Source: Pseudomonadota bacterium (GTDB lineage: Bacteria; Pseudomonadota; Gammaproteobacteria; Pseudomonadales; JAUIET01). Taken from it: 64,000 bases of DNA. Where the stretch lies: NCBI GenBank assembly GCA_039111475.1, contig JBCCIP010000010.1, positions 62,677 through 126,676 on the forward strand. Direction: 5' to 3'. Below the pieces are notes generated by a model. That model searched no databases, was not told the origin of the DNA, and was given only the letters and a program-made list of their open reading frames with translations. Numbering within the stretch: position 1 is the first letter of the stretch; every line of letters begins with the position of its first letter. The position numbers were made by a program, and so were the translations under genes. Of this stretch, positions 35,272-57,664 are shown piece after piece.

Positions 35272-35301
35272 CGCACAGAGATTGACCCGCAGGCAACGAC
35301 T

Positions 35302-36780: not shown

Positions 36781-36784
36781 CACG

Positions 36785-38101
36785 ATGAAACTGTCGATAC
36801 TTCCGCATAACGATAACAATAACGGTTGGCTGCGAATTCTGCCCGAGCTACCCTTGGCCAATGTGTTACGAGGCGAGCATTCTTTTGACGTAGCTATTGT
36901 CGGAGCAGGGTTTACTGGCTTGGCCGCCGCTCGCAGGCTGGGCGAGTTATGTCCAGATGAGCGCATCGCCCTGATTGACGCTGGAAGAATTGGCAACAAC
37001 GCCGCCGGTCGATGTTCGGGGTTTGCTATTGATCAGGCACACAATATTCGCGCGAAAAGCTTTGCTGATGAGCTGGCGAACGAACGATTTCAGCTGCAAC
37101 TCAATAGGCACGGTCAACAAGCGTTGCGTGATGCTGTTGAGCAACACGCCATTGATTGTGATTGGCAAGAAGCGGGCAAGATTCACGGCGCTGGTACTGT
37201 GAAAGGTCAGCAGCTGCTGCGTGATTTAAGCAAGAACATTGAAGCGCTGGGAAATTCCTGTGAGTTTTATGATGCCGAGAAAATGCAGAGTGTCACTGGC
37301 CTGAGATTTTATCGTGAGGGCTTGTATACGCCTGGTACACAGCAAATGCAACCAGCCGCGCTGGTGCGAGGCTTGGCAAAGACCTTACCTGAAAACGTTG
37401 CCGTGTATGAAGATAGCTTGATTACCGATGTGGAATACGGTGATTCACATCGCTTGATCAGTTCAGATGGTGAATTGCAGGCGAACACTCTGGTGCTGGC
37501 AAATAACAGTTTTGCAGCGGCGTTTGGCTTTTATGAAAAACATCTGATACCGCTGCCCACGTTTGCCAGCATGACGCGTGAACTAACAGCTTCTGAATTA
37601 GATACTTTGGGTGGTGAACAAAGCTGGGGCATTGTGCCGGCGCACCCTTTCGGGTCAACGGTGAGAAGGTTAAACAGCAATCGCTTATTGGTTCGCAATA
37701 TCTACGCCTACTCGCATAAGCACAACCCCACCGAGTCGCAGCGGCAGTGGGCCAGAGGAAAACACATTAAGTCATTCAAAGATCGTTTTCCCATGTTGGA
37801 TAAGGTGGAGTTTGAATACAGTTGGGGCGGTACATTGTGTTTGTCCGATAACGGTAAGCCGGTCTTTGGTGAAGTAGCACCCAGAGTTTTTGCCTCACTC
37901 TGCCACCAGGGTGTTGGTATTGCCAGAGGCACCAGTTGTGGAAAGCTCATTGCCGAAGAAGTGGCAGGCGAAGAGTCTGATCTTCTGAGTGCAATGCGTG
38001 CAGAGGGCAGACCGAACAAGAGTTTTCCTAGCTGGATGATGCGCATAGGTGCGCCGCTGAATCTTGCCAATCGACGCCGAATGGCCGGCGGGGAGTTGTA
38101 G
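36785..38101 (+). CDS. FAD-dependent oxidoreductase of the DAO family (D-amino-acid / sarcosine / N-methyl-amino-acid oxidase-like).
   Basis: N-terminal GxGxxG dinucleotide fold (VAIVGAGFTGLAAA) and a length of about 438 aa. Confidence 0.8.
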   Translation: MKLSILPHNDNNNGWLRILPELPLANVLRGEHSFDVAIVGAGFTGLAAARRLGELCPDERIALIDAGRIGNNAAGRCSGFAIDQAHNIRAKSFADELANERFQLQLNRHGQQALRDAVEQHAIDCDWQEAGKIHGAGTVKGQQLLRDLSKNIEALGNSCEFYDAEKMQSVTGLRFYREGLYTPGTQQMQPAALVRGLAKTLPENVAVYEDSLITDVEYGDSHRLISSDGELQANTLVLANNSFAAAFGFYEKHLIPLPTFASMTRELTASELDTLGGEQSWGIVPAHPFGSTVRRLNSNRLLVRNIYAYSHKHNPTESQRQWARGKHIKSFKDRFPMLDKVEFEYSWGGTLCLSDNGKPVFGEVAPRVFASLCHQGVGIARGTSCGKLIAEEVAGEESDLLSAMRAEGRPNKSFPSWMMRIGAPLNLANRRRMAGGEL

Positions 38102-38102
38102 C

Positions 38103-38870
38103 ATGGCAACGTTGGCATTGTCTGATAAAACGGTAGTAATCACCGGTGCAACGTCCGGTATTGGCGCTGCAACCGCACGCGTGATGGCAGCTCAAGGCGC
38201 GCGTTTGCTGCTACTTGGTCGAAATGCAGAGCGCGCTAAGCGTGTGCAAAAAACCGTTGTTGACGAGGGTGGTGTTGCGGAAACCTTCATTGGAGATGTG
38301 AGCGAATCAACGACTGCGGAGGCAGCGGTTAAGCAAGCGCTGCAGAGTTTTGGCCATCTAAATGCGTTGGTAAACGCAGCCGGTGTCATTTATCGAGGCA
38401 ATGCCGTACAGACCAGCGACCAGCAATGGCGCGACAGTATGTCTGCCAATGTGGATGGCAGTTTTTTCATGTCTCGTGCTGCGGTGAGCGCAATGAAGCA
38501 TGGCGGCAGTATCGTCAATATTGCCTCTACCTGCGGCTTGGTCGGGGCCAAAGATCTTACCGCGTACTGCGTCAGCAAGGGAGCGATTGTGCAACTCACG
38601 CGCGCAATGGCGCTGGATCACGCTGATGAAAACATTCGAGTGAACTCAGTTTGCCCGGGGGCAATTGACACGCCCATGTTGGTATCAGGTCACGAGCGCA
38701 GCGGTGCTTCCGCCGAGCAAGTACTAGCAAACAATTTAGCGGAGATTCCTCAGGGGCGCATACCTGGCCCGGAAGAGGTTGCCGAATTGATTGCGTTTCT
38801 CTGCAGTGATGTCAGTTCTCATATTACCGGCACCAACATACCGATTGATGGCGGGTACACAGCGCAATGA
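38103..38870 (+). CDS. SDR family oxidoreductase.
   Basis: TGATSGIGAATA motif, NAAG, and catalytic YCVSK. The ATG overlaps the upstream stop. Confidence 0.85.
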   Translation: MATLALSDKTVVITGATSGIGAATARVMAAQGARLLLLGRNAERAKRVQKTVVDEGGVAETFIGDVSESTTAEAAVKQALQSFGHLNALVNAAGVIYRGNAVQTSDQQWRDSMSANVDGSFFMSRAAVSAMKHGGSIVNIASTCGLVGAKDLTAYCVSKGAIVQLTRAMALDHADENIRVNSVCPGAIDTPMLVSGHERSGASAEQVLANNLAEIPQGRIPGPEEVAELIAFLCSDVSSHITGTNIPIDGGYTAQ

Positions 38871-39667
38871 GCACGTCTTTACGCAATAAGGTTGCCGTTG
38901 TAACCGGTGGTTCACAGGGCATAGGACGCGGAATTTCTGAGCGTTTAGTGGCTGCGGGGGCCCACGTTGTTGTTGCCGACTTGAAAAAAGCTGATGACTT
39001 TCAGCAATGGCGGAATGCGAGCGACGATCAGGTGAGCTATCTGAAGACCGACGTCACCTCTGGCGAATCGGTACAGTCATTGGCTGAGCAAATCGAGGCG
39101 CAGCAAGGGCGCGTGGATGTACTGGTGAACAATGCAGGCATCATGTTTGAGAAAAGTCTCGAAGAGCAAACAGAAGCCGACTGGGACTTAATGATGGCCA
39201 TCAACGTTAAAGGCCCTATGTTGATGAGCAAATTTTTGTTGCCGCTGCTGCGCTATGGCGCAGCGAAAAACGGTAGTGCAGCTGTAGTAAATATAGGGTC
39301 TATTGAAGGGTTTGCAGTTAACCCCAAGCACACGGCTTACAGCGCGTCCAAAGGCGCGGTACACGGGTTTACAGCGGCACTTGCAGTGGATCTCGGCTTG
39401 GACAAAATCCGCGTTAACGCGATAGCGCCTGGTTGGATCGATACCGACTTAAATCGAGCCTATGTCGAATCGGTTGGCGATGTTGAGCTGGCCAAACAAG
39501 AGTTGGCGAAATTACACCCTATGGGTTCTATTGGCGAACCCTCAGATGTTGGCGATGTTGTTGTATGGCTTGCCAGCGATGAATCGCGTTTCGTGAATGG
39601 GCAGGTCATTACTGTTGATGGCGCGCGCACCAGGAAACTGTCCTTACCTCCTATTTTTCAAACTTAA
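38867..39667 (+). CDS. SDR family oxidoreductase.
   Basis: TGGSQGIGRGIS motif, NNAG, and catalytic YSASK. The start overlaps the upstream stop. Confidence 0.85.
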   Translation: MSTSLRNKVAVVTGGSQGIGRGISERLVAAGAHVVVADLKKADDFQQWRNASDDQVSYLKTDVTSGESVQSLAEQIEAQQGRVDVLVNNAGIMFEKSLEEQTEADWDLMMAINVKGPMLMSKFLLPLLRYGAAKNGSAAVVNIGSIEGFAVNPKHTAYSASKGAVHGFTAALAVDLGLDKIRVNAIAPGWIDTDLNRAYVESVGDVELAKQELAKLHPMGSIGEPSDVGDVVVWLASDESRFVNGQVITVDGARTRKLSLPPIFQT

Positions 39668-39692
39668 CCTTCCAACCTAAAAGGCATCCACT

Positions 39693-41237
39693 ATGAGTGA
39701 AGCGGCGATATCCGGTAGCTCCCAGGGCAGAAGAGGTCGCTCGGCACGTCGCAACGCGCGTCTGGCAACCAGTTTTGATTCACTCCCTGCGTTGGAGAGA
39801 GGGCTGCCGTATCTGGATTTGATGACACCTGCCCAACTCGAGAAAATGCACGATGCGACCATGCGCATACTTGAGAATAAGGGAATAGAGTTTCGAGACG
39901 ACGAATCGGCCGAGCTTTGGAGAGCAGCAGGAGCAACAGTCAACGGCCATCATATTCGCATTCCCCGTGAATTGCTGATGCAGTTAATCAGTACGGTTCC
40001 TAGCAGCTACACCATGCACGCTCGTAACCCGGAGCGTACCGTGAAGTTAGGCGACGGTCATACCTGCTTCGTGCCGGCGTATGGTTCGCCCATGATCATA
40101 GACATGGACGGAAAACGCCGAAACGCCACGCTGGAAGACTTCAACAATTTTGCGAAGCTTGCTTATATGGCACCTGCCATGCACATGACGGGCGGAGTAT
40201 TGGTAGAGCCCATGGATGTGCCGGTACCCAAACGTCATTTGCACATGATGTACAGTTTGTTGAAGTATTCTGACAAGCCGTTTATGGGCATGGTGCTCGG
40301 TCGCGACAAAGCCATCGACAGTATGGAAATGGTTAAGCTTGTATTCGGTGAAGAGTTCCTTGAAACACATACGGTAATGACATCACTGGCTAATGGCAAT
40401 TCGCCGCTAGTGTGGGACGAAACCATGCTGGATGCCGCGAAAGTCTATGCACGCCACAATCAGGCGATGTTGTTTTCACCGTTCGCGTTGTGCGGCGCAA
40501 GCACGCCTGCCAGTGTTGTTGGCACCATGGCGCAGATAAGTGCTGAGGCCTTGGCTGGCGTGGCATTTTCGCAGCTGTGCAGAAAGGGCGCACCGGCTGT
40601 TTACGGACAATGGTTGGCAACAGTGTCAATGCAAAGTGGGGCACCCATGGCCGGCACACCCGAAATTTGCCACATTAACATGTTAATGGGGCAGTTGGCC
40701 CGGTTTTACAAACTGCCCATGCGCTGCAGCGGTATGTGCACCAGTTCTAAAGTGGTAGATACACAGGCTGGCTATGAAGCTGGTAGGAATATGTACGGTG
40801 TTTTGATGTCGGGGGCGAACTTTGTTTTGTCTACCGCAGGTTATATGGAGGGGGCCATGGCACAGAGCTACGCCAAATACGCGATTGACATCGAGCAGAT
40901 GGAGTTGTTTTATCGCCTGGGGAAAGGCCCAGATTTCGACGGGCTTGGTGGTGCGTTAGACGCCATTGATGACGTAGAAATTGGGCATCACTATTTGGGC
41001 AGTGCGCACACGCTTGAGAATTTCCAAACCGCATTTTCCATGCCGAATTTGATGGACCACAACAGTTACGAGCAGTGGGCGGCCGAAGGGGGTAAAGACG
41101 CGAACCAGCGCGGCATAGAGAAGATCAAAAAGATGCTTGGCGATTATCAAGAACCTGCGCTTGATTCGGCTGTTGATGACGCCTTATTGGAATTTATTGC
41201 AAGGCGTGAAGCTGAGATTGGCGATCGAACGCTCTAG
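39693..41237 (+). CDS. MttB-superfamily (trimethylamine methyltransferase-like) corrinoid-dependent methyltransferase of the non-pyrrolysine type. Candidate betaine or quaternary-amine demethylase.
   Basis: About 514 aa, an N-terminal Arg-rich region (RRGRSARRNARL) and overall MttB/MtgB-like sequence character. There is no in-frame amber codon. Confidence 0.75.
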   Translation: MSEAAISGSSQGRRGRSARRNARLATSFDSLPALERGLPYLDLMTPAQLEKMHDATMRILENKGIEFRDDESAELWRAAGATVNGHHIRIPRELLMQLISTVPSSYTMHARNPERTVKLGDGHTCFVPAYGSPMIIDMDGKRRNATLEDFNNFAKLAYMAPAMHMTGGVLVEPMDVPVPKRHLHMMYSLLKYSDKPFMGMVLGRDKAIDSMEMVKLVFGEEFLETHTVMTSLANGNSPLVWDETMLDAAKVYARHNQAMLFSPFALCGASTPASVVGTMAQISAEALAGVAFSQLCRKGAPAVYGQWLATVSMQSGAPMAGTPEICHINMLMGQLARFYKLPMRCSGMCTSSKVVDTQAGYEAGRNMYGVLMSGANFVLSTAGYMEGAMAQSYAKYAIDIEQMELFYRLGKGPDFDGLGGALDAIDDVEIGHHYLGSAHTLENFQTAFSMPNLMDHNSYEQWAAEGGKDANQRGIEKIKKMLGDYQEPALDSAVDDALLEFIARREAEIGDRTL

Positions 41238-44900: not shown

Positions 44901-45293
44901 TTACTTTTTGTTTTTGCGAGCTTGTTTTATCTTCTGTTCGAGTGCTTTTAACTCATCGTCGCTCATTTCGTCTGAATGATTGTCGATAAACGCAGTGGCC
45001 GCTCTGAGCGGTGAACCTGAAAAAAACGTGCCCACCAACCGCCTTATGGCGCTCACGCTGGCATTGTCTTTTTCCAGAATAGGCATATAGATGTAACGCG
45101 CGCCTTGCTCGGTATGAGTGATGTGGCCAGCCTCTTCAAGCCGGGCCAGCATCGCTCGTACAGCAGAGTAACCAGGGGGGTTGGGAATATGCTCCTGTAC
45201 GGTCTTTGCGTCTGCACGCTCAAGGCGATACAAGGCATCCATTATTTGCCGCTGTCGGCGACTTAGGTGGGTATGTGGATCATTGCTGGGCAT
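44901..45293 (-). CDS. BlaI/MecI/CopY family transcriptional repressor.
   Basis: Size of about 130 aa. Winged-helix N-terminus with the RRQRQIMDALYRLERADAKTVQE pattern typical of the family. Confidence 0.85.
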   Translation of the reverse strand: MPSNDPHTHLSRRQRQIMDALYRLERADAKTVQEHIPNPPGYSAVRAMLARLEEAGHITHTEQGARYIYMPILEKDNASVSAIRRLVGTFFSGSPLRAATAFIDNHSDEMSDDELKALEQKIKQARKNKK

Positions 45294-45329
45294 GGTTTGA
45301 CTCTCGCAGCGCTGTGGGTTTTCTAGGTG

Positions 45330-45365
45330 TGCTACTTTTATAGCATTATGCTACAAAAATAGCAC
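45330..45365. promoter_or_regulatory. Tandem dyad operator GCTACTTTTATAGC-atta-GCTACAAAAATAGC. The whole 35-bp element is near-palindromic. Candidate BlaI-family repressor binding site.
   Basis: Read directly. It lies 37-72 nt upstream of the blaI-like start, in the divergent promoter region. Confidence 0.45.
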
Positions 45366-45569
45366 CTTTGTGGATTGAATCAACCACTTTCTTACATCAA
45401 GATGAGATAAGCGCTTGGTTTTTATAGAACGGAACGTTATAGAGTTGCTGCTAAGAACACCGAGTACCTGTGCATGCCCGGTAACTGTGGGTATGGCTAA
45501 ATAGTCACTGCATAAAGTGCAGCACTCGCGTTATATTAGCAACCGTTAAGAACTACTCGGAAATAAACC

Positions 45570-46976
45570 ATGCTTGCCACTGAAACCACAAGTTCAGTTA
45601 ATTTCTTTCTCGATGGGAATTTCGCACCTGTTGTTGATGAGCGCGATGCAGATGAAATGGAGGTGCGCGGCCGCATTCCTAAAGACCTGGCGGGGCATTT
45701 CTTGCGGATTGGTCCAAACCCATTGCACATTTTCAGCGAGGAGGCATATCACACCTTCGACGGCGATGGCATGATTCACGCGATTGAGTTTAATGATGGC
45801 GCTGCCCATTATCGAAATCGGTTCGTACAAACGGACGGATTTAAGGTAGAGCAGAAGTTGGGTCACTGGGTGTACAAGGGGATGCTTTCAATGATGGACC
45901 CCACGCCTGCACCCATTCCTGAAGGCGCTCCCGCTGAAAAAAACCGCGCAAATACTGCATTGGCCTATCACAACAATACCTTGTATGCCTTGCACGAGGC
46001 CTCACGCCCGACTGTTATTCGCTTACCTGGATTGGAAACAGAAGGCGAAACAGATTTTAACGGCAAGTTGCAACATCCGTTTACTGCACATCCCAAAGTG
46101 GATCGCAAGAGCGGAGATATGCTGAGCTTCGGTTATGGATTTGAGCCGCCTTTTGTGCACTACTCGGTTATAGATGGTAATGGAGACCTGGTTCATTCAA
46201 CGCCTATCACTATTGAAAAGCCAGTGTTCATGCATGATTTTGCGGCCACTGCGAACTACACATTGGTTCTTGATTTTCCGATCACGCTGGACATTGAGCG
46301 GGCGATGGCTGGTGGCCCTGCACTTGATTTTGAGCCAGAGCATGGGTCAAGAATTGGCGTGGTCCCTCGTTATGGTTCTGACAAAGATGTGCGCTGGTTT
46401 GAGGTGGAAACCTGTTCGGTAATTCATACCGCGAATGCATGGGATGAGGAAGACTGCATTGTTCTGCAAGCGTCAAGAGCTGAAACAACCGATATTGCTG
46501 GCGCAGGTCTGGATGCAGAAAACCTGGAGGATACTCAAGGGCAGCTCTATGAATGGCGCCTTGATTTAAACGCCGGCACTGTTACGGAGCGTATGCTCAG
46601 CGAAGTACATTGTGATTTCTTGCGAGTGAATGACGAGTATGCTTGTCACAAAACTCGTTATATTTACGGCGGAGTATTTAATTCAGAGCGCGCATTCACG
46701 TTCGACGGACTGATGAAATACGACAACGACACCCACATAATCAGCACCTATGACTACGGCCACCAACGCTATGGCGGTGAGGCCGTGTTTGCACCAAAAA
46801 TTGGCGCCGTTGCTGAAGACGACGGTTACCTGATTTGCTTTGTGCACGATGAATCACTAAACCAGAGTGAATGCTTGATTTTGAATGCGCAAGATATAGC
46901 GGGCGGGCCGATAGCAACCCTGTTGATGCCTTACCGTGTGCCGTACGGTTTTCACGCCGGCTGGGTGAGCTCTTAG
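45570..46976 (+). CDS. Carotenoid cleavage oxygenase family protein (RPE65 / lignostilbene dioxygenase / apocarotenoid oxygenase-like).
   Basis: Length of about 468 aa with conserved His-containing blades (HTFDGDG, HPKVD, FMHDF, HTANAW) and acidic second-shell residues. Confidence 0.8.
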   Translation: MLATETTSSVNFFLDGNFAPVVDERDADEMEVRGRIPKDLAGHFLRIGPNPLHIFSEEAYHTFDGDGMIHAIEFNDGAAHYRNRFVQTDGFKVEQKLGHWVYKGMLSMMDPTPAPIPEGAPAEKNRANTALAYHNNTLYALHEASRPTVIRLPGLETEGETDFNGKLQHPFTAHPKVDRKSGDMLSFGYGFEPPFVHYSVIDGNGDLVHSTPITIEKPVFMHDFAATANYTLVLDFPITLDIERAMAGGPALDFEPEHGSRIGVVPRYGSDKDVRWFEVETCSVIHTANAWDEEDCIVLQASRAETTDIAGAGLDAENLEDTQGQLYEWRLDLNAGTVTERMLSEVHCDFLRVNDEYACHKTRYIYGGVFNSERAFTFDGLMKYDNDTHIISTYDYGHQRYGGEAVFAPKIGAVAEDDGYLICFVHDESLNQSECLILNAQDIAGGPIATLLMPYRVPYGFHAGWVSS

Positions 46977-46981
46977 TGTTT

Positions 46982-48106
46982 TCAGTGTTCCATAGAGCGG
47001 TAATGCGCCATGAAATTCTCCACCATGTTTTGCACGTCGAAGCGTTGAGCGGCGTCTCTCTGCGCTTCGTTACCTATAGTCTTAGCCATTTGCGTATGCA
47101 GCATCAATTGCTCGATATTCTCTGAAAGTTCAAGCGCATTACCGGGGCTGAACATCAAGCCGGTTACATTCTGTTTAACCACTTCGGCATTGCCAGGAAT
47201 GCGGGACACAATTACCGCCAACCCGTTCATCATGGCTTCTACCTAGGTGTTGGATATGCCTTCATCTTCGGACGGTAGAATAAGAAAATCAGAGTGATTC
47301 AATAGGGCATGGATATCAGTGCGTTCGCCAATCATTTGTACATTTGACCGCAAACCCCGACGACCAATTTCTTGTCGAATGTCTTTTTCTTCCGGGCCAG
47401 ACCCGGCGATCAGAAAATGAAAGTCATGATCTTTTTGTTTCAGTATCTCAAGAGCCTGCAAGATCACGGGAACATTCTTCGATTTAACCAAGCGTCCAAC
47501 GAACAGGCCAAGCGGTTTATCCTTGTGCTGAGGGCTACCTTCTATCGGTAAAAGAGACTGATCTTGTTTGACCACGCCGTTGTAGATCGTGGCTAACTTT
47601 GGCGCCAATCCTGGCATTTTTTGCAGCGCATATTCGCTGCCTGAGTGCGAATTTGACACCACTGATTTCGACATATGTGTAATGAAACGTTTCAGCAACC
47701 ACTCAGTTGATGTAAACCACTCATACCTTGCGCGAATAGATGTGTGCAAATTCGTTTTTGGACTGAAGAGGTAAGCAACGCAACACCAAAATTCGGCGGT
47801 AAGCGAAAAACAATGTATATGGTCGAACCGCTCTCGCCAGAGAAATCGGGATATACCCAGTAAGAATAACGGGTCAATCTTGAAGTGCTTTGGAATGTGA
47901 GTTACGCGCACGCCACTGGCATGCAATTCCTCAAGCAAGTAAGAGTGCTTTCGAAAGTACAACAGATGTGGCTCAAATTGCCGCCTGTCTATATTTTTTA
48001 CCAGATTGACAATCTGCCGCTGAGAGCCTCCAACCTCCATCTCATCGCAAACAACGAGTAGTTTTTTCTTTGCGCGCGTGGGCAGCGCATTGTCTACGGA
48101 TTTCAT
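46982..48106 (-). pseudogene. GT4 (GT-B fold, family-1-like) glycosyltransferase interrupted by a single in-frame TAG at 47243-47245.
   Basis: The two adjacent ORFs are in the same frame. The sequence reads ...LPSEDEGISNT-TAG-VEAMMNGLAVIVSRIPGNAEVV, which matches the canonical GT4 PSxxEG...EAM core. The TAG sits where Leu, Val or Ile is normally found. Confidence 0.7.
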
Positions 48107-48664
48107 CAGACTGCGGTCTCAATATTTCAAGGCAACGTTGCTGTGGCAACATAGTGGGCCGTTTGTAAAACTACAGAATACGTCGTCAATAGCCGTGCAA
48201 GCTAGACCGCTCAGCGAAGTGTTATGCAGTTTAACATTTGACCAATCTCTCACGTATTTGTTCAATCTCAACATGATATTCATGAGGCGAAACTACGTGA
48301 GCGATGCTTCAGTGACAACTGCACAGGGACCGGTGGCGATTTATCGATACTCAGCGCATAGGGTGAACGGTCGGGGATACAGTCGCTATTGTTTCGGCTC
48401 GCAGAGTGACGAGAAAATTTACAATTTTATGGGTGGTGCATGCGACTATGTTCTAAAACCAGCAATGCGGCGATTGCCTAAACAGTGGGATTTTTGACGT
48501 CCGTTCATCGAACTAATCTCTAGAGTGAGAGTAAGCGGACGCCTTGCAGACCGGCGCGGGGCTGGCCAGAATTGACGGCTTGTTGCTTAGCCTTAGTTTG
48601 AACGTTTGTCGACGTAGGAGCGCCTATATACTTGGAGTATTACTGCATACTTTAGTGGAAAGCA

Positions 48665-49630
48665 TCATTCGTAAAACTGCGAAAACCATTTTCGATGTTT
48701 TGCTATCGGTCCATCACCATCACAGAGAACCGGGTTCGCCTGATATTTCTTTTCCTGCCAAATCGGTATATCCGCCAAGACCCCTTCGGGATAGGACTGC
48801 AACATGGTTTTGCCCATATCGTCTTCTGCCAGATCGTTGGTAACGGTCATGCTCCAGCGCAGAAGCGTACGGTCTTCTTCCACGGGCGTTGAAACGCTGT
48901 ACAGAAGAAACTCACCCATCACGCCAGGTTTTACACCAACAATATTTTTTGACCACACGCTGACATGTCCCGGCCCATGTGACTCCCTGAACGACATGTA
49001 TTCGGTGCCTTCTTCTACCTCACCAACTGACATTTCTTCGCGGGTTTGAAACGCCTGTGTGGTTTTCTTGATGGGACCGTCAATAATGGATTCAGCCTCC
49101 GTGAAACTTGGCATACCATGCAAGTAGGGAAAATGCGCTGTATCAACATCATTTTCCGAAATTTCTTGTACGCAGGTCGGTAAGTCATGTACCAGAAACT
49201 CGGCAGGAATCCAGCCTTCGGCAGCACCATTGAAAGGAGCCAGTTCGGGCACTTCGAAATACGGTGGCTTTCCCTCGCGATCGTGCCAAGCCATGATCAT
49301 GCCATTCACCTCGCGTACATGAATGCTTTCAATCACTGCTCGCTCAGGTATTTTCTTCGCATACGGAATATGTTCGCATTGGCCATCGCCATTCCACTGC
49401 CAGTGATGAAACGGGCAGCGAAGTGTTTCACCAATTACACAGCCTTGACTAAGCGGAGCGCCGAGATGTGGGCAGTAGTTATCAAGCGCAGCTGCTTTGC
49501 CCGACTCAGTTCTAAATGCAACAAGGTCGCGACCACAAAAGCGCACTTTTTTGACCTCGCCTTTTTGTAACTCGTGGGCGAAGCACAGGCCAAACCAGCC
49601 GTGGGGCAATGGGAAGGGGAATTTACTCAT
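48665..49630 (-). CDS. Rieske [2Fe-2S] non-heme iron oxygenase, small alpha-subunit type (VanA/PDO-like).
   Basis: Rieske ligands CPHLGAPL...CPFHHW and mononuclear-iron motif D-x2-H-x4-H (DTAHFPYLH). Confidence 0.8.
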   Translation of the reverse strand: MSKFPFPLPHGWFGLCFAHELQKGEVKKVRFCGRDLVAFRTESGKAAALDNYCPHLGAPLSQGCVIGETLRCPFHHWQWNGDGQCEHIPYAKKIPERAVIESIHVREVNGMIMAWHDREGKPPYFEVPELAPFNGAAEGWIPAEFLVHDLPTCVQEISENDVDTAHFPYLHGMPSFTEAESIIDGPIKKTTQAFQTREEMSVGEVEEGTEYMSFRESHGPGHVSVWSKNIVGVKPGVMGEFLLYSVSTPVEEDRTLLRWSMTVTNDLAEDDMGKTMLQSYPEGVLADIPIWQEKKYQANPVLCDGDGPIAKHRKWFSQFYE

Positions 49631-49911
49631 AGACAGTAAAACGATGTGGTTGTGGATTCATTTCTCAATAGTACCTTGTTGGCCGTAGGCATGTATTTCA
49701 ATTCGTATATGTGGGCAAGACTTGAGCCAATCCTACGTTGCTAATCAGCGCTGCAAGAAAACAGACATTGAACGCGGCGCCAACGCAGCTCCGCAGTTGC
49801 GACGAACTACACCTTTGCTGCGGTAACTGACATTGCGCGTTGCTTTCGCGGCATTGTAGTGTGCTAGTGCCACGACACAGAGGTACTAGTTCGCAGCTAA
49901 TGTACACGCTA

Positions 49912-50379
49912 ATGATCTCACTACTTATAAATGAAAAGCCGGTAACACTTGAATTGGAGCCCAACATGCCGTTGCTGTGGGCCTTGAGGGAGCACCTCAA
50001 CTTAACCGGGGTAAAGTTTGGCTGCGGAATAGGCCAGTGCGGTTCATGCACAGTGCACGTTAATGGCGTGGCACAACGAAGCTGCGTAACACCTGTGGCA
50101 TCTGTTGCGGGTAAGCGTGTTACCACGATCGAAGGTTTGGCGGCGTCAGAGCAACAATTGCATCCCGTGCAGCAGGCGTGGATGGCCAATGATGTGCCGC
50201 AGTGCGGCTACTGCCAGGCAGGGCAAATAATGGCCGCCGCGCATTTTCTGCAGAATTTTCCGGAACCCACTGATGAAGACATTGACACCCACATGACCAA
50301 TATTTGTCGCTGTGGGACTTACGTGCGCATTCGAAAAGCAATTCATGACGCAGCACAATTAATTGCCAAGGAGTCTTGA
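49912..50379 (+). CDS. (2Fe-2S)-binding small subunit of a xanthine dehydrogenase / aldehyde oxidoreductase-family molybdoenzyme (IorA-like).
   Basis: Two cluster motifs ([11 protein letters not shown] and CGYCQAG...CRCGTY). The start is uncertain (49900 or 49912). Overlaps the large-subunit start. Confidence 0.8.
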
Positions 50380-52652
50380 ATATGTCTTCGTTATCCAGCT
50401 CCCAACTTTCCAGTTCCAGACTGCGCCGCCGGCAATTTCTGATAGCCGGTGCTGGATTGTCGGGCTCGTTTGTTCTGGGGTTGCCGATGCACTTATTGGC
50501 AAAGCCAAGCCAGGACGCGGAACCCGTTGATGCCCATGGAACACTGGGCTTCTTTATCGAAATTGACAGCGAAGGTGTGATTACAATTGGCAGTAATCAG
50601 CCAGAAATTGGACAGGGTGTGAGAACCGCTCTGCCAATGCTGGTTGCCGAAGAGCTGGATGCCGACTGGAAAAACGTACGTGTGACGCAAATGCCGCTGG
50701 GCATTGTCAAAACGGCTGATGGCTTCGCCTGGAAATATGGTGGCCAGGGCGTTGGTGGCAGCACCGGCCTGACCAGCAATTGGGAGTTTATGCGCCAGGT
50801 CGGCGCGCAAGCACGTGCTCAACTGATGTCGGCAGCAGCCCAGCGCTGGAATGTGCCAATACAGGAATGCGGTACTCGCCCAGGTTATGTGATTCACCAA
50901 GGTGGCCAGCGAGAGCTAAGCTATGGTCAACTTGTCGGAACGGCCGCGCGGTTGCGACTACCGGGTGAGACCGCGCCGCTAAAAAAACATCAAGACTATC
51001 GAATTATTGGTAAACCAACGGCCAGCGTTGATACGAAAGACGTTGTAACGGGAACCGCTATCTATGGCATAGACAGTGCTGTCGAAGGAATGCGCTACGC
51101 TGTTGTTGCGCGTTCTCCAGTTTTGAATGGGCGAGTGAAAGCATTTGATGCCAAAGATGCGTTGAAGATTCCAGGTGTTTTGCAGGTCTTTCGATTGGAA
51201 GGCCCTAAGCCAGGCGACCCTTACCGGATTCTGGCGGATGGCGTGGCGGTGGTGGCAACATCAACGTGGACGGCCATGAAAGCCCGGGAGGCATTGCGCA
51301 TTGAGTGGGCTTCAAACCCCAATGCAAACGACAACAGCACCGATTTCTGGCAAGACAATCAGCAGATGTTAAAGGCGAAAGGACAAGTAGTTTTGGAGGA
51401 CGGCGATTTTGATCTAGCCGTGTCGAATGCTGCACGTCGTATGGTTCGCCAATACAAAGTGCCGTTTGTATCTCACGCGCCATTGGAGCCACAGAACTGT
51501 ATTGTTCATGTAAAAGAAAACTCCGCGCACGTGATTGCGCCAACCCAAATGCCCAGCGGCGCATCTCGCGCCGTGAACGCAGTGACTGGCATAGAGCGTG
51601 AACACATTAGTGTTGAGATGACCAAGGTGGGTGGCGGCTTCGGTCGCCGCCTGAGCAATGATTACGTCGCGGAAGCGGCCATGATTTCACAGCAAAGCGG
51701 CCTGCCAATCAAGCTGCAGTGGAGCCGTGAAGACGACATCAAAAATGACTTCTATCGGCCCGCCGGTTTGCACGAAATGCAGGCGGGTTTAGATGCACGT
51801 GGCCGGGTCATTGCCTGGGCGCAGCGACTGGCAAGCGCGAGCAAATATTACCGGCGACCCAACATGCCCGATGAGAATCTTTGGGAAGCAGAACTCTATG
51901 TTGATGACTTCCCAAGAAGGCGAGTTGAGAACGTACGGCTGGAATATTTTCACAACGCTATTGGCCTGCCACGTGGCTCCTGGCGCGCACCAGCGCACAC
52001 AGCCAATGCCTTTGTTGTGCAAAGCTTTATCGATGAAATTGCGCACGCGAGCGGGCAAGATCCACTGCAACTGCAGCTGGATCTGTTAGGCAAAGAGGAG
52101 GATCTGGAGTACTCAAATCATGGCGGCCCGGTATTTAATCCAGGCCGGCTCGCCAAACTTTTGAAGTTTGTTGCCCAGCAAATTGACTATAAGCGGAGCA
52201 GACCGGAAGGCGTTGGTGTAGGACTGGCAAGCCATTTCACCTTTGGTGGCTATGCGGCGCACGCAATAGAAGTGTCGGTAAACAACGCAGGTCGATTGAC
52301 TATTGAGAAAATTGTTGCAGCCATTGATTGCGGGCTGGTGGTTAATCCACAGTCCGTCAGGGCTCAACTGGAAGGCGGCACCATCGATGGCATTAGCACT
52401 GCGTTGGGTCTGGAGATTACTGTCAAGGATGGTCAGGTGCAGCAAAGCAATTTCCATGACTACCCATTAATGCGGATTGCACAAGTGCCTGAACAATTTG
52501 AGACACACATTCTGCCTTATGACGACGTGCCGACAGGCGTGGGAGAAATGGGCATACCGTCTGCAGCCCCTGCGCTTACCAATGCAATCTTTGCGGCCAG
52601 TGGTCAGCGAATTAGAGCGCTACCTATTAAGGATCAGCTGAAAAAGTCTTGA
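50376..52652 (+). CDS. Molybdopterin-binding large subunit of an IorB-like aldehyde oxidoreductase or isoquinoline 1-oxidoreductase, Tat-exported.
   Basis: Twin-arginine signal [14 protein letters not shown], a length of about 758 aa and family-typical sequence character. Confidence 0.85.
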
Positions 52653-52658
52653 AGCTCC

Positions 52659-53354
52659 CTAGCTACCAGCATCTTGCAAAATACCTTCTCCTTTCACGAA
52701 CCATGAAACACCAAAAGCGACAATAGCTAACGCTTCCAACCAAAACACGAACTCAAGCTCATTCTGCCAATCCAATTGAACAAGCGCATATTGAACACCA
52801 ATCAGCACAACAGAGCTGACAATCGCATAACCACACACGGTGTACACTTTGTTGCGTTTGATTTTCGCTGCCGTAGGTTCTTGATCCGGACTGAATTTCT
52901 TGAACAGCACCAGGCAAAAATAGGCTAGGGCAAAGAAGAAAAACGCGGCAAACGTCGCGTGCAATAGATCGCAGACTATTTGAGTCGGCGTTAAGGTTTC
53001 TAATTCGGGTGCTACCGGAAACAAAGCAACCCCAATCGCGCTAATGCCGGCAACATCGCCCGCTAGATTGTCTCGCCAGTCCCACCCTTGATACGTCATC
53101 AGAAAAACGGCTATCGCAAACAAGCTGCCTACAAACACGTCACCCATACGGGTGTAGTAGTAGGCGCTCATGGTTTTCTCTATGCCTTCTGCACCGAGTA
53201 ATAGATTGCCTATCGCCAGTACGAAGGGCAGAGAGATGCCTATTACGCCGACTATGCGTCGGAGAGATAAATAGGAGATAACCATGGAGGTGCTAGGCAT
53301 TTGCAGGGATCGTATGCATTGTCGGCTGGCGAGTATAAATGAAGTCTGTACCAC
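52659..53354 (-). CDS. Hypothetical integral membrane protein.
   Basis: Five or six hydrophobic helices with no recognisable motif. The start is uncertain. Confidence 0.45.
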   Translation of the reverse strand: MVQTSFILASRQCIRSLQMPSTSMVISYLSLRRIVGVIGISLPFVLAIGNLLLGAEGIEKTMSAYYYTRMGDVFVGSLFAIAVFLMTYQGWDWRDNLAGDVAGISAIGVALFPVAPELETLTPTQIVCDLLHATFAAFFFFALAYFCLVLFKKFSPDQEPTAAKIKRNKVYTVCGYAIVSSVVLIGVQYALVQLDWQNELEFVFWLEALAIVAFGVSWFVKGEGILQDAGS

Positions 53355-53481
53355 AGTTGTGGGAGCGGTGGCTCAAAGTCAGGCCTGCGGATGCTCAAAA
53401 TTGCAAAAATCATGGTTTTTCTGTCACCACTGGTCTGAATCTGGATGTTAATTGAGGCCATTCATTCAATAAGTTCTTTAA

Positions 53482-53551
53482 TTACAGTAGGTTACAGAAA
53501 TTACAGTTTCAGTTATTGTTACATGTAATAATTTGATATATCACATGTAAG
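53482..53551. promoter_or_regulatory. AT-rich control region. Three TTACAG repeats phased at about 10 bp, then the perfect palindrome TTACATGTAA and a second ACATGTAA copy 23 bp downstream.
   Basis: Read directly. Immediately upstream of the pspA-like operon. Confidence 0.4.
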
Positions 53552-53567
53552 TTGTTAGGATATGTGC

Positions 53568-54188
53568 ATGGAAAAGAAAACATCAGCCCACTATCAGCGC
53601 GAGTTCCGAAGAAGGCTCAGAGAACAAGGACTGATAAAGAAAGAGGTCTGGATTCACCCTGAACGTGCTTCACAGCTTAGGGAGATCGAGAAACGACTGA
53701 GATTTAGTGGCGAAAACGTATTAACGGACGGAGAAAATAGCATGACGAGTAGAACCAACGGCACATGGCATACAACGGATCTTTACACTGAGATTGAGAA
53801 GTCGGAGCTGATCAGTTCTGGCGCCGCGAGCGTCGAACTTATAGAAGGCGTGGATCCCAGTATTCATCTCGAGATGCGCGACTACGGCGACCTGCCTATT
53901 TTTGTCACGGTTGCCGGCGAGCAAATAACGGCCGACGCTGTTTTATGGCCGAAATCAGCCGTTTCAAATGCAGCGGGCTTTAATGACGCAGTACTGCGAA
54001 CACACAAGTACTTCCCGTTATCCACGATCAGTTTGGAAACGGTGAATGGCGAAGATTATTACTACATGTTTGGCGCATTGAGCGCGGCATCGGGTCTGGA
54101 TGACGTGCTGGTAGAAATAGACGCGCTGGCTTCAAACGTAATTAACGCGACTGAAGCTTATGGCGAGTTTCTGAAGTTTGATTCGTAG
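53568..54188 (+). CDS. Hypothetical protein with a basic N-terminal extension and a C-terminal domain resembling YjfI/DUF2170 (assigned by gene-order analogy).
   Basis: It is the first gene of the operon directly preceding a PspA/YjfJ-like gene, as in E. coli yjfI-yjfJ. N-terminus KKTSAHYQREFRRRLREQGL. ATG at 53568 has an AGGA Shine-Dalgarno. Confidence 0.45.
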   Translation: MEKKTSAHYQREFRRRLREQGLIKKEVWIHPERASQLREIEKRLRFSGENVLTDGENSMTSRTNGTWHTTDLYTEIEKSELISSGAASVELIEGVDPSIHLEMRDYGDLPIFVTVAGEQITADAVLWPKSAVSNAAGFNDAVLRTHKYFPLSTISLETVNGEDYYYMFGALSAASGLDDVLVEIDALASNVINATEAYGEFLKFDS

Positions 54189-54223
54189 TTAGATACACAT
54201 ACGCATATCCAAAGGAGAGAGTT

Positions 54224-54937
54224 ATGAATATTTGGGCAAAGATGATCACAGCACTTCGCGGAGGTGTTAATGAAGCCGGAGAGGCGATAGTTGACACTCA
54301 AGCACTGCGAATACTTGATCAAGAAGTGCGCGACGCAGCTGAAGAGCTGAAGCAATCGAAAGACGGTTTGGCTAACATTATTGCACAGCAAAAATTGGCG
54401 GAGGAGAAGGTCGCTAAGTTAGAGAGTGAGATAAAAGCTCATGAAGGCTATGCTGTGAAAGCACTTGAGAAGGGCGATGAAGTGCTTGCGTTAGAAGTTG
54501 CCGAAAAAATCGCCAATATGGAAGTTAGTTTGGCGACGGAACGGAATTCTGCCAATGAGTTTGCGGCCAGCGCTGCTAAACTTAAGTCAGCTATCAAGCA
54601 TGCTGAAAGTAATATAAGGCGTTTGAAGCAGCAGGTTGATACAGTTCGTGCCACCGAGAGCGTACAGCGCGCCCAAGCGGCAGTGTCAGAACGGCACAGC
54701 GGTTCAAACTCAAAAATGCGCACTGCCATGGATTCCCTTGAAAGAATCAAGGAAAAACAGGCCCTGAATGAGGCAAAAATGAACGCCGCAGAAGAGCTAA
54801 GCGAAGAGCTTGGGGAAGAATCTTTACAGGCAAAATTGGCGGAAGCGGGAATTACTGGGTCTGAGCGAAGTGCCGAAGACATTTTGGCAAAATTGAAGCC
54901 AAAGGTGAAAAAGGCAACGACTAAGCGTAGCAAATAG
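54224..54937 (+). CDS. PspA/IM30/Vipp1 family protein (YjfJ-like), a member of the ESCRT-III superfamily.
   Basis: All-helical, coiled-coil-rich protein of 237 aa. N-terminus MNIWAKMITALRGGVNEAGEAIVDTQALRILDQEV matches the PspA-family amphipathic helix and core. GGAGAGAG Shine-Dalgarno. Confidence 0.8.
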   Translation: MNIWAKMITALRGGVNEAGEAIVDTQALRILDQEVRDAAEELKQSKDGLANIIAQQKLAEEKVAKLESEIKAHEGYAVKALEKGDEVLALEVAEKIANMEVSLATERNSANEFAASAAKLKSAIKHAESNIRRLKQQVDTVRATESVQRAQAAVSERHSGSNSKMRTAMDSLERIKEKQALNEAKMNAAEELSEELGEESLQAKLAEAGITGSERSAEDILAKLKPKVKKATTKRSK

Positions 54938-54974
54938 AATCTCGGCAACAATAGGCTAGAGGAGAGGGAGAAAG

Positions 54975-55679
54975 ATGTTCGCAATTCTGTTAAGTGACAA
55001 GATGAATCCGTTCTACGAGAACATTGCGTCCTTTCCTACCGTTGTATTCACGTTTCTTCTGGTGCTGTGCACGCTCTATTGGCTTACTGCCATATTGGGA
55101 TTAGTCAGCGTCGACATGCTTGATTTTGATCTGCCCGAAATGGCCGGCCTCGAAGATCTAAATGCTGACGTTGATTCTACCAATCCTGATGTGCTTGCGG
55201 GTTTGATGTTGCGATATGGCCTACACGGTGTACCAGTAACCATCATAGTCAGCTTGTTAGCCATGATTGGCTGGATCGTTTGTTATTACCTGGTGCACTT
55301 CGGCTTCAGTTACACTCCCGATTGGATATCAGATAGCTTTGTTCGTTATCTGGTCGGAATACCGATATTCCTCGTTTCGCTCTACCTGGCTGTGCTTGCC
55401 ACCGCTGTGCTTATAAAACCGCTTCGACCGTTCTTTCTTCGGGCAACGCAAGAAACCACAAAATATGTGATAGGTCAGACGGCGGTAGTTCGAACTTCCA
55501 GAGTGGACAACGGATTCGGTGAGGCGCTGTTGGATGACGGTGGTGCCGGGTTGATTCTGAAAGTGCGTTGCACAGATGGGGAAACGTTTGAGAAGGGAGA
55601 TCGTGTAGTGCTGATCGACCAAATTGAAGGTACCGATTTTTATCGAGTGATCTCTGAAGCAGAATTCACTGATTCCTAG
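54975..55679 (+). CDS. YqiJ/DUF1449-like inner membrane protein with a C-terminal NfeD-like OB-fold.
   Basis: N-terminal TM helices, then a soluble C-terminus (GQTAVVRTSRVDNGFGEALLDDGGAGLILKVRCTDGETFEKGDRVVLIDQIEG) typical of short NfeD proteins, which partner with SPFH proteins. Confidence 0.65.
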   Translation: MFAILLSDKMNPFYENIASFPTVVFTFLLVLCTLYWLTAILGLVSVDMLDFDLPEMAGLEDLNADVDSTNPDVLAGLMLRYGLHGVPVTIIVSLLAMIGWIVCYYLVHFGFSYTPDWISDSFVRYLVGIPIFLVSLYLAVLATAVLIKPLRPFFLRATQETTKYVIGQTAVVRTSRVDNGFGEALLDDGGAGLILKVRCTDGETFEKGDRVVLIDQIEGTDFYRVISEAEFTDS

Positions 55680-55732
55680 CGAGTGCTGGTAGCTCGTTAC
55701 AAACAAAAAGGACACTAACTAAGGAAAATACT

Positions 55733-57643
55733 ATGGCTGATTTATCGATTTTGATGCCGATTCTCGTATGGATAGGCGTGGCATTCGTAACATTGCTTGG
55801 TCTGGCGGGTTTGTTCAAAGCGTTTTACTACAAAGTAGAGCAGGGCACCGCGCTTATCGTCAATGACATGAGCTCAACACCCAAGGTCCATTTTACCGGC
55901 GCTCTGGTGTATCCAATCATCTACAAAAAGGAGCTGATGAAAATCTCCTTGATAACCCTGGAGGTTGATCGCAGGGCTAAAGACGGCCTGATTTGTAATG
56001 ACAATATGCGTGCAGACATAACGGTAGCGTTTTATTTGCGGGTTAATGAAACCGCTCAAGACGTGCTAAAGGTTGCAAAGTCGATAGGTGCTGAACGAGC
56101 TTCTGATCGTGAAGCAGTTCATGACTTGTTTGCCGCCAAGTTTTCTGAAGCACTGAAAACCGTGGGCAAGCAGATTGACTTTGTACAGTTGTTTGAGAAT
56201 CGCCAGCAATTTCGTGAAAAAATCATCGAAGTTATTGGCGAAGATTTGAATGGTTATGTACTGGAAGATGTTGCAATCGACTATCTGGAACAAACTCCAA
56301 AAGAACATTTGGACCCAAGTAATATTCTCGACTCAGAAGGCATAAAGAAGATTACGGAGTTAACCGCTGAGCAGAACGTTCGAACCAATATCCTTGAACG
56401 GGACGAAGAACTTGCGATCAAGAAGAAAAATGTAGAAACAGTGGAAGCAATGCTAGAGCTTGAACGCCAGCAAGCAGATGCCGAAGCGCGACAAGAAAGA
56501 GAAGTGCTGACCATACGCGCTCGTGAAGAAGCAGAAACGAAAAAAGTGCAGGAAGAGGAGCGTCAAAAAGCTGAGCAGGCGACGATTACTGTAGATCAGG
56601 AGCTGATGGTACAAACAGAAAACCAGAAGCGCGAAGTAGAGGTAGCGGAGCAAAACCGTCAGCGCGCTGTTGCGGTAGAAGAAGAAAAGGTCACACGTGC
56701 TCGTGACCTGGAGATAGTATCCAGGGAAAGAGAAGTTGACGTAGAGCGCGTGCTTGCAGAGAAAGCCGTGGAAGTTGAGAAGAAAGAAATCGCCAACGTA
56801 ATTCGTGAGCGAGTCGCCGTCGATAAAACAGTGGCCATTGAGGAAGAGCGAATTAAGGAAGTGAGAGAAGTATCAGATGCTGACCGTAAGAAGCAAGTGC
56901 AGGTACTCGCTGCTGAGGCAAATGCTCAGGAAGGCAAGGTGAAAGAGGTCACAGCTGCGGCCGCTGAAGAAGAAGCTGCGAAACACAAAGCAGCTGAAAT
57001 CACTACAATTGCGGCGGCAAACCTTGATGCTGCTGATATGGAAGCCAAAGCACAAATCCGCTTGGCCGAAGCCATTCAGGCTGACCAAGCGGCACCGGGT
57101 CTTGCGGAAGCTCAGGTACAAGATGCGAAAGCAGACTCTTTGCAGAAAGAAGGTCTTGCTGAAGCTGCTGTGATCAATGCCAAAGGCGACGCCGAAGCCA
57201 GTGCCTCGAAAGAAATTGGAATGGCCGGAGCGGAAGTCACTCGCCAGCAATTCAAGGCTGAGGCCGATGGCTTGGTGGATAAGTTCGATGCTATGAATTC
57301 AATGAGTGATAATGCCCGCGAGCATGAGGAATTCCGCATGGCGCTTGAAACAGCCTTTAAGGAAGCCATTGCCGCGATTGAAGCAGGTAAGGAAATCGCC
57401 AAAGAAAACGCTGAAGTGTTGGGTACAGCGCTGGAACGAGCGAAGATCGATATTGTGGGTGGAGAAGATCACTTCTTCGACAACTTCGCCAAGTCTTTGT
57501 CCATTGGCAAAGCCGTGGATGGACTGGCCAACAAGAGCGACACACTTGGCTTGATCCTCGACTCTGTGCTCAAGCGTGCAAGCGGTGACGTGGTTGCTGT
57601 AGACCCGGAGCAAGAAGCGCCCGCCTCCGAGCCGGCCGCCTAA
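55733..57643 (+). CDS. Flotillin / SPFH (band-7) domain protein, YqiK-like.
   Basis: N-terminal TM helix, an SPFH domain (VEQGTALIVNDMSSTPKVHFTGALVYPIIYKKELMKISLITLEV), then a long EA-rich coiled-coil flotillin tail. Confidence 0.85.
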   Translation: MADLSILMPILVWIGVAFVTLLGLAGLFKAFYYKVEQGTALIVNDMSSTPKVHFTGALVYPIIYKKELMKISLITLEVDRRAKDGLICNDNMRADITVAFYLRVNETAQDVLKVAKSIGAERASDREAVHDLFAAKFSEALKTVGKQIDFVQLFENRQQFREKIIEVIGEDLNGYVLEDVAIDYLEQTPKEHLDPSNILDSEGIKKITELTAEQNVRTNILERDEELAIKKKNVETVEAMLELERQQADAEARQEREVLTIRAREEAETKKVQEEERQKAEQATITVDQELMVQTENQKREVEVAEQNRQRAVAVEEEKVTRARDLEIVSREREVDVERVLAEKAVEVEKKEIANVIRERVAVDKTVAIEEERIKEVREVSDADRKKQVQVLAAEANAQEGKVKEVTAAAAEEEAAKHKAAEITTIAAANLDAADMEAKAQIRLAEAIQADQAAPGLAEAQVQDAKADSLQKEGLAEAAVINAKGDAEASASKEIGMAGAEVTRQQFKAEADGLVDKFDAMNSMSDNAREHEEFRMALETAFKEAIAAIEAGKEIAKENAEVLGTALERAKIDIVGGEDHFFDNFAKSLSIGKAVDGLANKSDTLGLILDSVLKRASGDVVAVDPEQEAPASEPAA

Positions 57644-57664
57644 GCCGGCGCGGAGCACAGCTGA

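Follow-up and report, generated by a model that had tools for sequence, protein, structure and literature searches.

A single amber codon in an orphan GT4 glycosyltransferase gene of a Pseudomonadales bacterium: very probably a young null allele of a recurrently lost gene

The stretch of DNA analysed here, a window of 64,000 nucleotides from a Pseudomonadota bacterium of the order Pseudomonadales (assembly GCA_039111475.1, contig JBCCIP010000010.1, positions 62,677 to 126,676 of the forward strand), carries on its minus strand the reading frame of a family GT4 glycosyltransferase (GT) that is broken by one in-frame TAG codon in its conserved core. The locus raises the question of what this codon is: an error of sequencing or assembly, a UAG that is translated, the boundary between the parts of a two-piece enzyme, the mark of a gene long dead, or a lesion that has only just struck a functional gene. 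The evidence set out below leads us to regard the frame, with considerable confidence, as a real and very young null allele of an orphan glycosyltransferase, and as one instance of the recurrent loss of a conditionally dispensable gene.

The interrupted frame and its enzyme family

Translation of window positions 46982-48106 on the minus strand reveals a single frame of 375 codons, running from an ATG at 48106 to a TGA at 46982-46984, in which the sole internal stop is the TAG at 47243-47245, codon 288 (Table 1). The stop stands between the residues ILPSEDEGISNT and VEAMMNGLAVIVSRIPGNAEVV or, with a longer left flank, between LILPSEDEGISNT and VEAMMNGLAVIVSRIPGNAEVV. The list of open reading frames (ORFs) gives two pieces in the same frame, 47243..48106 (287 residues) and 46982..47233 (83 residues), and the same 287-residue product was called on a Logan contig (P0001). 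A single match to the Pfam family Glycos_transf_1 covers residues 193-350 (E = 8e-38) and continues unbroken across codon 288, so that the two ORFs do not lie side by side by chance.

When the stop is read through, the translation scores 130 bits against PF00534 (Glycos_transf_1; cut-off 26.4) and, in its N-terminal half, 50 bits against PF13439 (Glyco_transf_4; cut-off 28.5, E = 4.5e-13). An AlphaFold2 model of the read-through protein, with a predicted local distance difference test (pLDDT) value of 90 and a predicted template-modelling score (pTM) of 0.84, consists of the two Rossmann-like domains of the GT-B fold. The best matches to this model in a Foldseek search of the PDB are HepE (4xsp), BshA (5d00) and PglA, all of them GT4 enzymes, with E values of 1e-19 to 1e-24 and template-modelling scores of about 0.8. 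By its domains and fold the frame is of the GT4/GT-B family, but being interrupted it counts as a pseudogene within it. Uninterrupted, it would encode a predicted cytoplasmic enzyme of the GT-B fold, transferring a sugar from a nucleotide-sugar donor.

Among NCBIfam models the best match is TIGR03088 (stp2, the PEP-CTERM/XrtA system glycosyltransferase), over residues 19-370, with 149 bits set against a cut-off of 409. One homolog of 48% identity (P0004) is encoded inside a typical exosortase-type exopolysaccharide (EPS) locus, together with two asparagine-synthase-type genes, two polysaccharide deacetylases, GT2 and GT4 genes, a FemAB-like gene and a two-component pair made up of a GAF kinase and a sigma-54 regulator. 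The nearest relatives characterised by their context are thus glycosyltransferases of EPS loci of the exosortase (PEP-CTERM/XrtA) type, and by analogy with them a role in polysaccharide synthesis may be suggested for the window enzyme.

The position of the stop bears directly on function. In an alignment of 119 homologs, residues E282, G283, N286 and E290 of the EX7E motif are invariant, and the column of the stop is occupied by isoleucine (50 sequences), leucine (44) or valine (25). These data, with the translation, bear out the initial annotation, which had described two minus-strand ORFs in one frame, parted only by the TAG at 47243-47245, and had placed the stop in the conserved GT4 core at a position normally held by Leu, Val or Ile. 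Both glutamates of the motif are encoded, but the stop falls between them and the terminated product keeps only E282. In GT4 enzymes the first EX7E glutamate touches the donor sugar and the second touches the ribose hydroxyls, and in TviE mutation of either abolished activity (PMC8760489). In the model the stop falls after strand 274-277 and before helix 290-293, and the terminated product is without strands 297-301 and 316-319 and without all helices from 304 to 371. A product of 287 residues that is devoid of E290, of these two C-terminal Rossmann strands and of all these helices should be inactive.

The first ATG 3' of the stop, at 47233, lies 9 nucleotides downstream and corresponds to M292. 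An ATG-ATG pair thus follows soon after the stop, with an AGG-containing stretch before it, and split enzymes of the GT-B fold do occur naturally, Alg13/Alg14 being an example. A two-piece enzyme may be imagined in which translation terminates at the TAG and re-initiates at 47233, and the fragments of 287 and 83 residues reassemble. We find such an enzyme hardly credible, because the break is within a Rossmann domain and not in the interdomain linker, because a peptide of 83 residues re-initiated at M292 would be without the invariant E290, which re-initiation there could not bring back, and because the arrangement is found in no ortholog.

The nonsense change also gave rise to the palindrome ACCTAGGT at window positions 47240-47247. 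The tetranucleotide CTAG is strongly under-represented in the window, with 66 occurrences against about 250 expected at equal base frequencies, and CCTAGG occurs only twice.

Origin and age of the amber codon

The genome is very probably metagenome-assembled: the Rieske oxygenase encoded upstream of the GT is identical to NCBI MEM8498023.1, a protein labelled 'MAG: Pseudomonadota bacterium' (MAG, metagenome-assembled genome). The stop might therefore be an error of sequencing or of the consensus, or the assembler may have settled on a minority allele, in a population that has a sense codon and an intact gene. The allele was seen in one sample only, SRR22824298, and in a sister species two near-identical assemblies disagree between TGA and TGC in this gene, so that single-base assembly differences do occur. 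Set against this, a Logan contig of 11,038 bp from the same sample (L001) is 100% identical to window 45253-56290, TAG included. The Logan assembly is k-mer-based and possibly draws on the same reads as the window's MAG. Two assembly procedures nevertheless arrived at the same base within 11,038 identical bases; k-mer assembly requires repeated exact reads over the site, and substitution errors rarely reach the consensus. No other gene in the 64 kb looks damaged, and the relatives carry other lesions in the gene, including a 1.2-kb deletion of a kind that base-calling error cannot make (see below). We consider an error improbable.

Further copies of the allele were sought in several collections. 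Exact-protein look-ups of the 83-residue fragment and of the neighbouring Rieske and RPE65 proteins returned only the SRR22824298 contig and no second sample. A protein search of JGI metagenome contigs gave only distant GT4 enzymes of 24-28% identity and no further allele of the species, and a search of GTDB species genomes matched only the MAG of the sister species (contig L004) and an unrelated actinomycete; the genome of the window itself does not figure among the representatives there. The homologs P0008 and P0241 had no record in the look-ups, and literature searches for ERP117304 and SRR22824298 were without match. No second split gene was found among the approximately 50 ORFs of the window. 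Four other same-frame ORF pairs with one stop between them (at 3827, 7183, 15948 and 35269) were considered and dismissed as split genes; they are distinct neighbouring genes of different Pfam families.

If the codon is real, the UAG might still be functionally decoded, by a suppressor tRNA, as pyrrolysine or through programmed read-through, with the full-length enzyme still being made. The 86 codons 3' of the stop are conserved and in frame, and a gene of the MttB family, some of whose methyltransferase relatives are linked with pyrrolysine decoding, lies 6 kb away; an in-frame UAG with an MttB-family gene in the same window is the likeness to those systems. The differences are several. In the 50 genes of the window TAG is the commonest terminator (20, against 18 for TGA and 12 for TAA) and ends both the MttB homolog (39693-41237) and the RPE65 gene; being a normal terminator here, it gives no sign of recoding. 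The MttB homolog matches its Pfam family over the full length and contains no stop in frame. Neither pyl-type genes nor tRNA genes of any kind were found within the window, and a search of the whole window against Rfam gave no match and hence no recoding or regulatory RNA of a known kind. The UAG stands in place of a hydrophobic core residue and is present at codon 288 in no ortholog, the closest having CTG (Leu) and the 119 homologs Ile, Leu or Val, and the lesion of the relative is another stop codon, elsewhere in the gene, and is polymorphic. Of three criteria applied to amber recoding, two speak against it: UAG proved not to be rare as a terminator, and the stop proved not to be conserved. 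The third was applied within the window, where there was no pyl or tRNA(CUA) gene. Amber recoding is rejected, the chance that the codon is decoded being in our judgement very small, and the site at 47243-47245 is unfit as evidence for it.

The closest ortholog, shared by contigs L002 and L004, derives from the MAG 'uncultured Pseudomonadales bacterium' ERP117304_co3_188. It is collinear with the window gene over 1125 nucleotides with no insertion or deletion, at 76% nucleotide and 85% protein identity. As this ortholog has Leu (CTG) at codon 288, the simplest route to the stop is a single T-to-A change in an ancestral TTG (Leu288), which would halt translation inside the donor-binding EX7E motif. 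Intact orthologs of 374 residues exist at 85% identity (L004/P0248) and at about 50% (P0002-P0010).

The window gene shows no signs of secondary decay. Its non-synonymous divergence (dN) from the ortholog is 0.090 for codons 1-108, 0.089 for codons 110-287 and 0.088 for codons 289-374; since dN is the same 3' of the stop as 5' of it, the 3' remainder has undergone no extra decay. Synonymous divergence (dS) by the Nei-Gojobori method (NG86) was saturated, and the divergence at four-fold sites, 0.61 (1.24 after Jukes-Cantor correction), was used in its place, giving a dN/dS of about 0.07. Relative-rate tests with eight outgroups detected no acceleration of the window lineage in seven, and the four window-derived changes at conserved sites are all conservative (V/I, F/L, T/S and I/L). 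These values indicate that purifying selection acted on the gene up to very recent times and that the lesion is very young.

A pseudogene of long standing, which deletion has simply not yet removed, would accord with the orphan position of the gene outside any polysaccharide locus and with the advanced stages of loss in the relatives. It is most difficult to reconcile with a single lesion, no indels, a uniformly low dN/dS that extends 3' of the stop, and window-specific changes at conserved sites that are few and conservative; a truly old remnant, that of contig L017 described below, contrasts with it in having, within 231 nucleotides, 10 non-synonymous against 4 synonymous changes as well as a further stop. 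We give it next to no weight.

The initial annotation had offered three explanations. A very recent nonsense mutation, a pseudogene in statu nascendi that a single change such as TTG to TAG would explain, is the one upheld by the lack of indels, the low dN/dS and the rate tests, with TTG itself reconstructed from the CTG of the ortholog; in the comparison of orthologs that it proposed, the same stop was absent and there was no decay downstream. A sequencing error has become unlikely with the identical TAG in the Logan assembly of SRR22824298, possibly from the same reads. Amber suppression, doubted there too on the grounds that the window has no pyl genes and that the neighbouring MttB has no UAG, falls with the frequency of TAG as a terminator and the non-conservation of the stop, and both of those grounds are confirmed.

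Synonymous divergence between window and L004 is roughly double in the GT what it is in the flanking genes (0.61 against 0.44 at four-fold sites), and the guanine-plus-cytosine (GC) content of the GT is lower (46.5% against 50%). The raised synonymous divergence and low GC may mean that recombination has preserved older alleles, or that codon usage is less constrained.

Losses of the gene in related lineages

The same gene is damaged or missing in several relatives. In Logan contigs L002 and L003 (ERR3534965 and ERR3534971), codon 109 is TGA instead of TGC. The MAG contig L004 has an intact GT and differs from L002 by 3 mismatches in 14,061 positions (99.98% identity); the intact protein of 374 residues (P0248) is on record from both NCBI and Logan. 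The differences lie at L002 6384, 9847 and 13055 (L004 6864, 10327 and 13535). Two of the three are stops in L002, the TGC to TGA change in the GT and a GAG to TAG change that shortens a hybrid histidine kinase from 691 to 579 residues, and both are G:C to T:A changes; the third is a missense difference (GCG/GGG) in a BlaR-like gene. The chance of two or more nonsense changes among three random substitutions is about 0.003-0.004. The pair could stem from selection for lost function or from oxidative damage as an artefact of the library; on the more speculative view put forward below, its occurrence in the GT and in the neighbouring hybrid histidine kinase hints at selection for the loss of a signalling-plus-glycan trait.

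A later stage is seen in contig L017 (SRR23272322), which is 94-96% identical to L004 and is missing 1229 bp (L004 9666-10894). The deletion removes the region upstream of the GT and codons 1-298. The 231-nucleotide 3' remnant of the gene has 14 differences from L004, of which 10 are non-synonymous (including Q354* and E308K) and 4 synonymous, as expected of neutral decay. The deletion junction (L017 5040-5300) falls in a short stretch of similar sequence, TGAACGGC, that is found both upstream of the GT and inside it.

In contig L016 (ERR13847226) there is no GT between the Rieske and RPE65 genes, which are separated by a gap of 48 nucleotides. In RPE65 distances the window is the outlier (0.17-0.18), followed by L016 (0.145-0.15), and L004 and L017 group together (0.033). 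Because of these distances, and because L016 shares its kinase/Crp neighbourhood with L004 and L017, the absence of the gene from L016 is probably a loss rather than an ancestral state. Altogether, the GT has been inactivated independently at least three times, and probably four, in the five lineages sampled.

The Rieske gene was tried as a phylogenetic marker and rejected as mosaic, the distance between L004 and L017 being 0.146 in this gene against only 0.033 in RPE65, which is 1-2 kb away. The window is nearer to L004 in the Rieske gene (0.11) than L017 is to L004, and the pattern indicates that recombination has acted across the locus.

Neither at 47243-47245 nor at codon 109 of the relative is there a homopolymer or short tandem repeat. 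A phase-variable surface-glycan gene was considered and rejected, all the lesions being point substitutions or a deletion in non-repetitive sequence.

Several points weigh against a real, very young null allele in a setting of recurrent loss. The Logan contig and the window assembly may share reads, and so may not be independent samples; the collections searched yielded no intact allele from this species, and a single sample carries the allele. The TTG ancestor is a reconstruction, since the relative has CTG. The absence of the gene from L016 could be ancestral, as the rooting on RPE65 distances and shared synteny is not secure, and the outgroup context (P0122) is a different neighbourhood that is uninformative for rooting. 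The substrate and the link to a polysaccharide, finally, are suggested by a 48%-identical homolog and by a TIGR03088 score below threshold.

Overall, the young null allele remains in our view the best account by far. Purifying selection would have preserved the gene through most of its past, and it would now be conditionally dispensable and lost repeatedly. As to why, there are two alternatives: the losses may be tolerated because a partner pathway has gone, or they may be favoured, as a change of surface glycan under pressure from phages or grazers. Strong purifying selection on the deep branches with several lesions at the tips is somewhat more in keeping with fluctuating or local selection, which is no proof of it. 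On a more speculative view, which we put forward tentatively and think rather doubtful, the orphan GT is a hotspot of recurrent selected loss in natural populations, for example through escape from phages or grazers by way of the glycan. Null alleles arising repeatedly while intact alleles persist in the long term would explain why deep purifying selection is combined with four different lesions on the terminal branches.

In annotation, the two ORFs are best merged into a single entry, marked as a glycosyltransferase pseudogene. The window would represent the earliest stage of gene death, and the relatives the later ones: a nonsense allele that is polymorphic, a partly deleted gene whose remnant is decaying, and a complete loss; together they form a small natural time series of an accessory bacterial gene disappearing. 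Were the losses proved to be selected, the gene could be considered as a marker for surface variation driven by phages or predators in an uncultured lineage of marine type; failing that, it is a young pseudogene of the ordinary kind.

Genomic setting and comparison with known systems

The coordinates of the gene and its neighbours are collected in Table 1. The GT is an orphan between the Rieske and RPE65 oxygenase genes and adjoins a BlaI/BlaR-TonB cluster; no EPS, exosortase, PEP-CTERM or other polysaccharide genes were found within the window. The Rieske protein is 97.5% identical to the copy of the relative, and the TAG stop of the convergent RPE65 gene is 5 nucleotides from the stop of the GT.

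Table 1. Features of the glycosyltransferase locus in window coordinates
Feature	Position	Strand	Evidence and remarks
GT4 glycosyltransferase frame (GT-B fold, retaining-type)	46982..48106	-	375 codons including terminal TGA, one interruption; translation, Pfam, AlphaFold2, PDB fold matches
Premature TAG, codon 288; probable inactivating lesion	47243..47245	-	Sequence; CTG in L002/L004; I/L/V in 119 homologs; identical TAG in L001
EX7E motif, E282-G-I-S-N-T-stop-V-E290	47237..47263	-	Stop at the seventh position; alignment of 119 homologs
5' fragment, 287 codons: N-terminal Rossmann domain and part of C-terminal domain	47246..48106	-	Product expected if TAG terminates; ORF list
3' remainder, codons 289-375: strands 297-301 and 316-319, helices 304-371	46982..47242	-	ORF list, modelled secondary structure
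KshA-like Rieske oxygenase, upstream neighbour	48665..49630	-	Pfam Rieske and KshA_C; syntenic anchor, not functional partner
RPE65 (carotenoid-oxygenase-type), convergent downstream neighbour	45570..46976	+	Pfam RPE65, E = 1e-135; second syntenic anchor
Candidate GT promoter: promoter-like TTGCCA, 17-nt spacer, TG-AATATT	48121..48149	-	Consensus scan; 15 nt 5' of GT start; weak

Between the Rieske gene and the start of the GT is an unusually long non-coding gap of 558 nucleotides (48107-48664). The 160 nucleotides closest to the GT are conserved in the sister species, the BLAST match reaching window position 48267. The gap matches no Rfam family. A scan of the region for promoters and terminators gave sites no more numerous than in shuffled sequences.

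Gene content around the locus is fluid, as different genes occupy the place 5' of the Rieske gene: in the window (49840-52652) a pair of 2Fe-2S and molybdopterin-binding oxidoreductases, and in three relatives (L002 3594-7408) a response-regulator guanylate cyclase, a hybrid histidine kinase and a Crp-type regulator. Farther on, about 9.5 kb of the window (53355-62884) is absent from the matching place in the sister genome, where a Na+/H+ antiporter gene adjoins the homolog of window 52659-53354. Encoded in the block are DUF2170, PspA/IM30, two proteins without Pfam match (234 and 636 residues) and a 1739-residue protein whose domains are DUF3686 ('ATPase involved in DNA repair'), DUF7902 and AAA_5. 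It may be a mobile or stress/defence-related island; a PADLOC search of the block gave no significant match.

The MttB-family gene closes a same-strand cluster (34309-41237) that also comprises a DHDPS-family gene, an aldehyde dehydrogenase gene, an FAD oxidoreductase (DAO) gene and two SDR genes. The cluster has the look of a catabolic operon for a methylated amine, with a non-pyrrolysine MttB.

Comparison with known systems places the window gene in a familiar setting. With the solved GT4 enzymes of the GT-B fold (PF00534/PF13439; HepE 4xsp, BshA 5d00 and PglA 8dqd) the read-through protein has in common two Rossmann-like domains, the EX7E motif and a fold match over its full length, although it is only about 20% identical to any of them and its frame is interrupted. 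TIGR03088 stp2 resembles it as the best NCBIfam match over the full length and through the EPS locus of P0004; unlike a true member, the window protein scores far under the cut-off, and the gene and the copies in its relatives stand alone between oxygenase genes.

The closest parallel is with young, lineage-specific bacterial pseudogenes that are later removed by deletion, which are well described (Kuo and Ochman 2010, PMC2916853). As in those cases, a single disabling point mutation lies in an otherwise conserved gene and is specific to one lineage, and later stages, a deletion and then a neutrally decaying remnant, are seen in the relatives. The phenomenon is thus already known, and the parallel-loss pattern is our modest addition to it. 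The difference is that here the same gene has been hit independently in at least three related lineages, above the expectation for a random gene, which points to gene-specific dispensability or to selection for loss.

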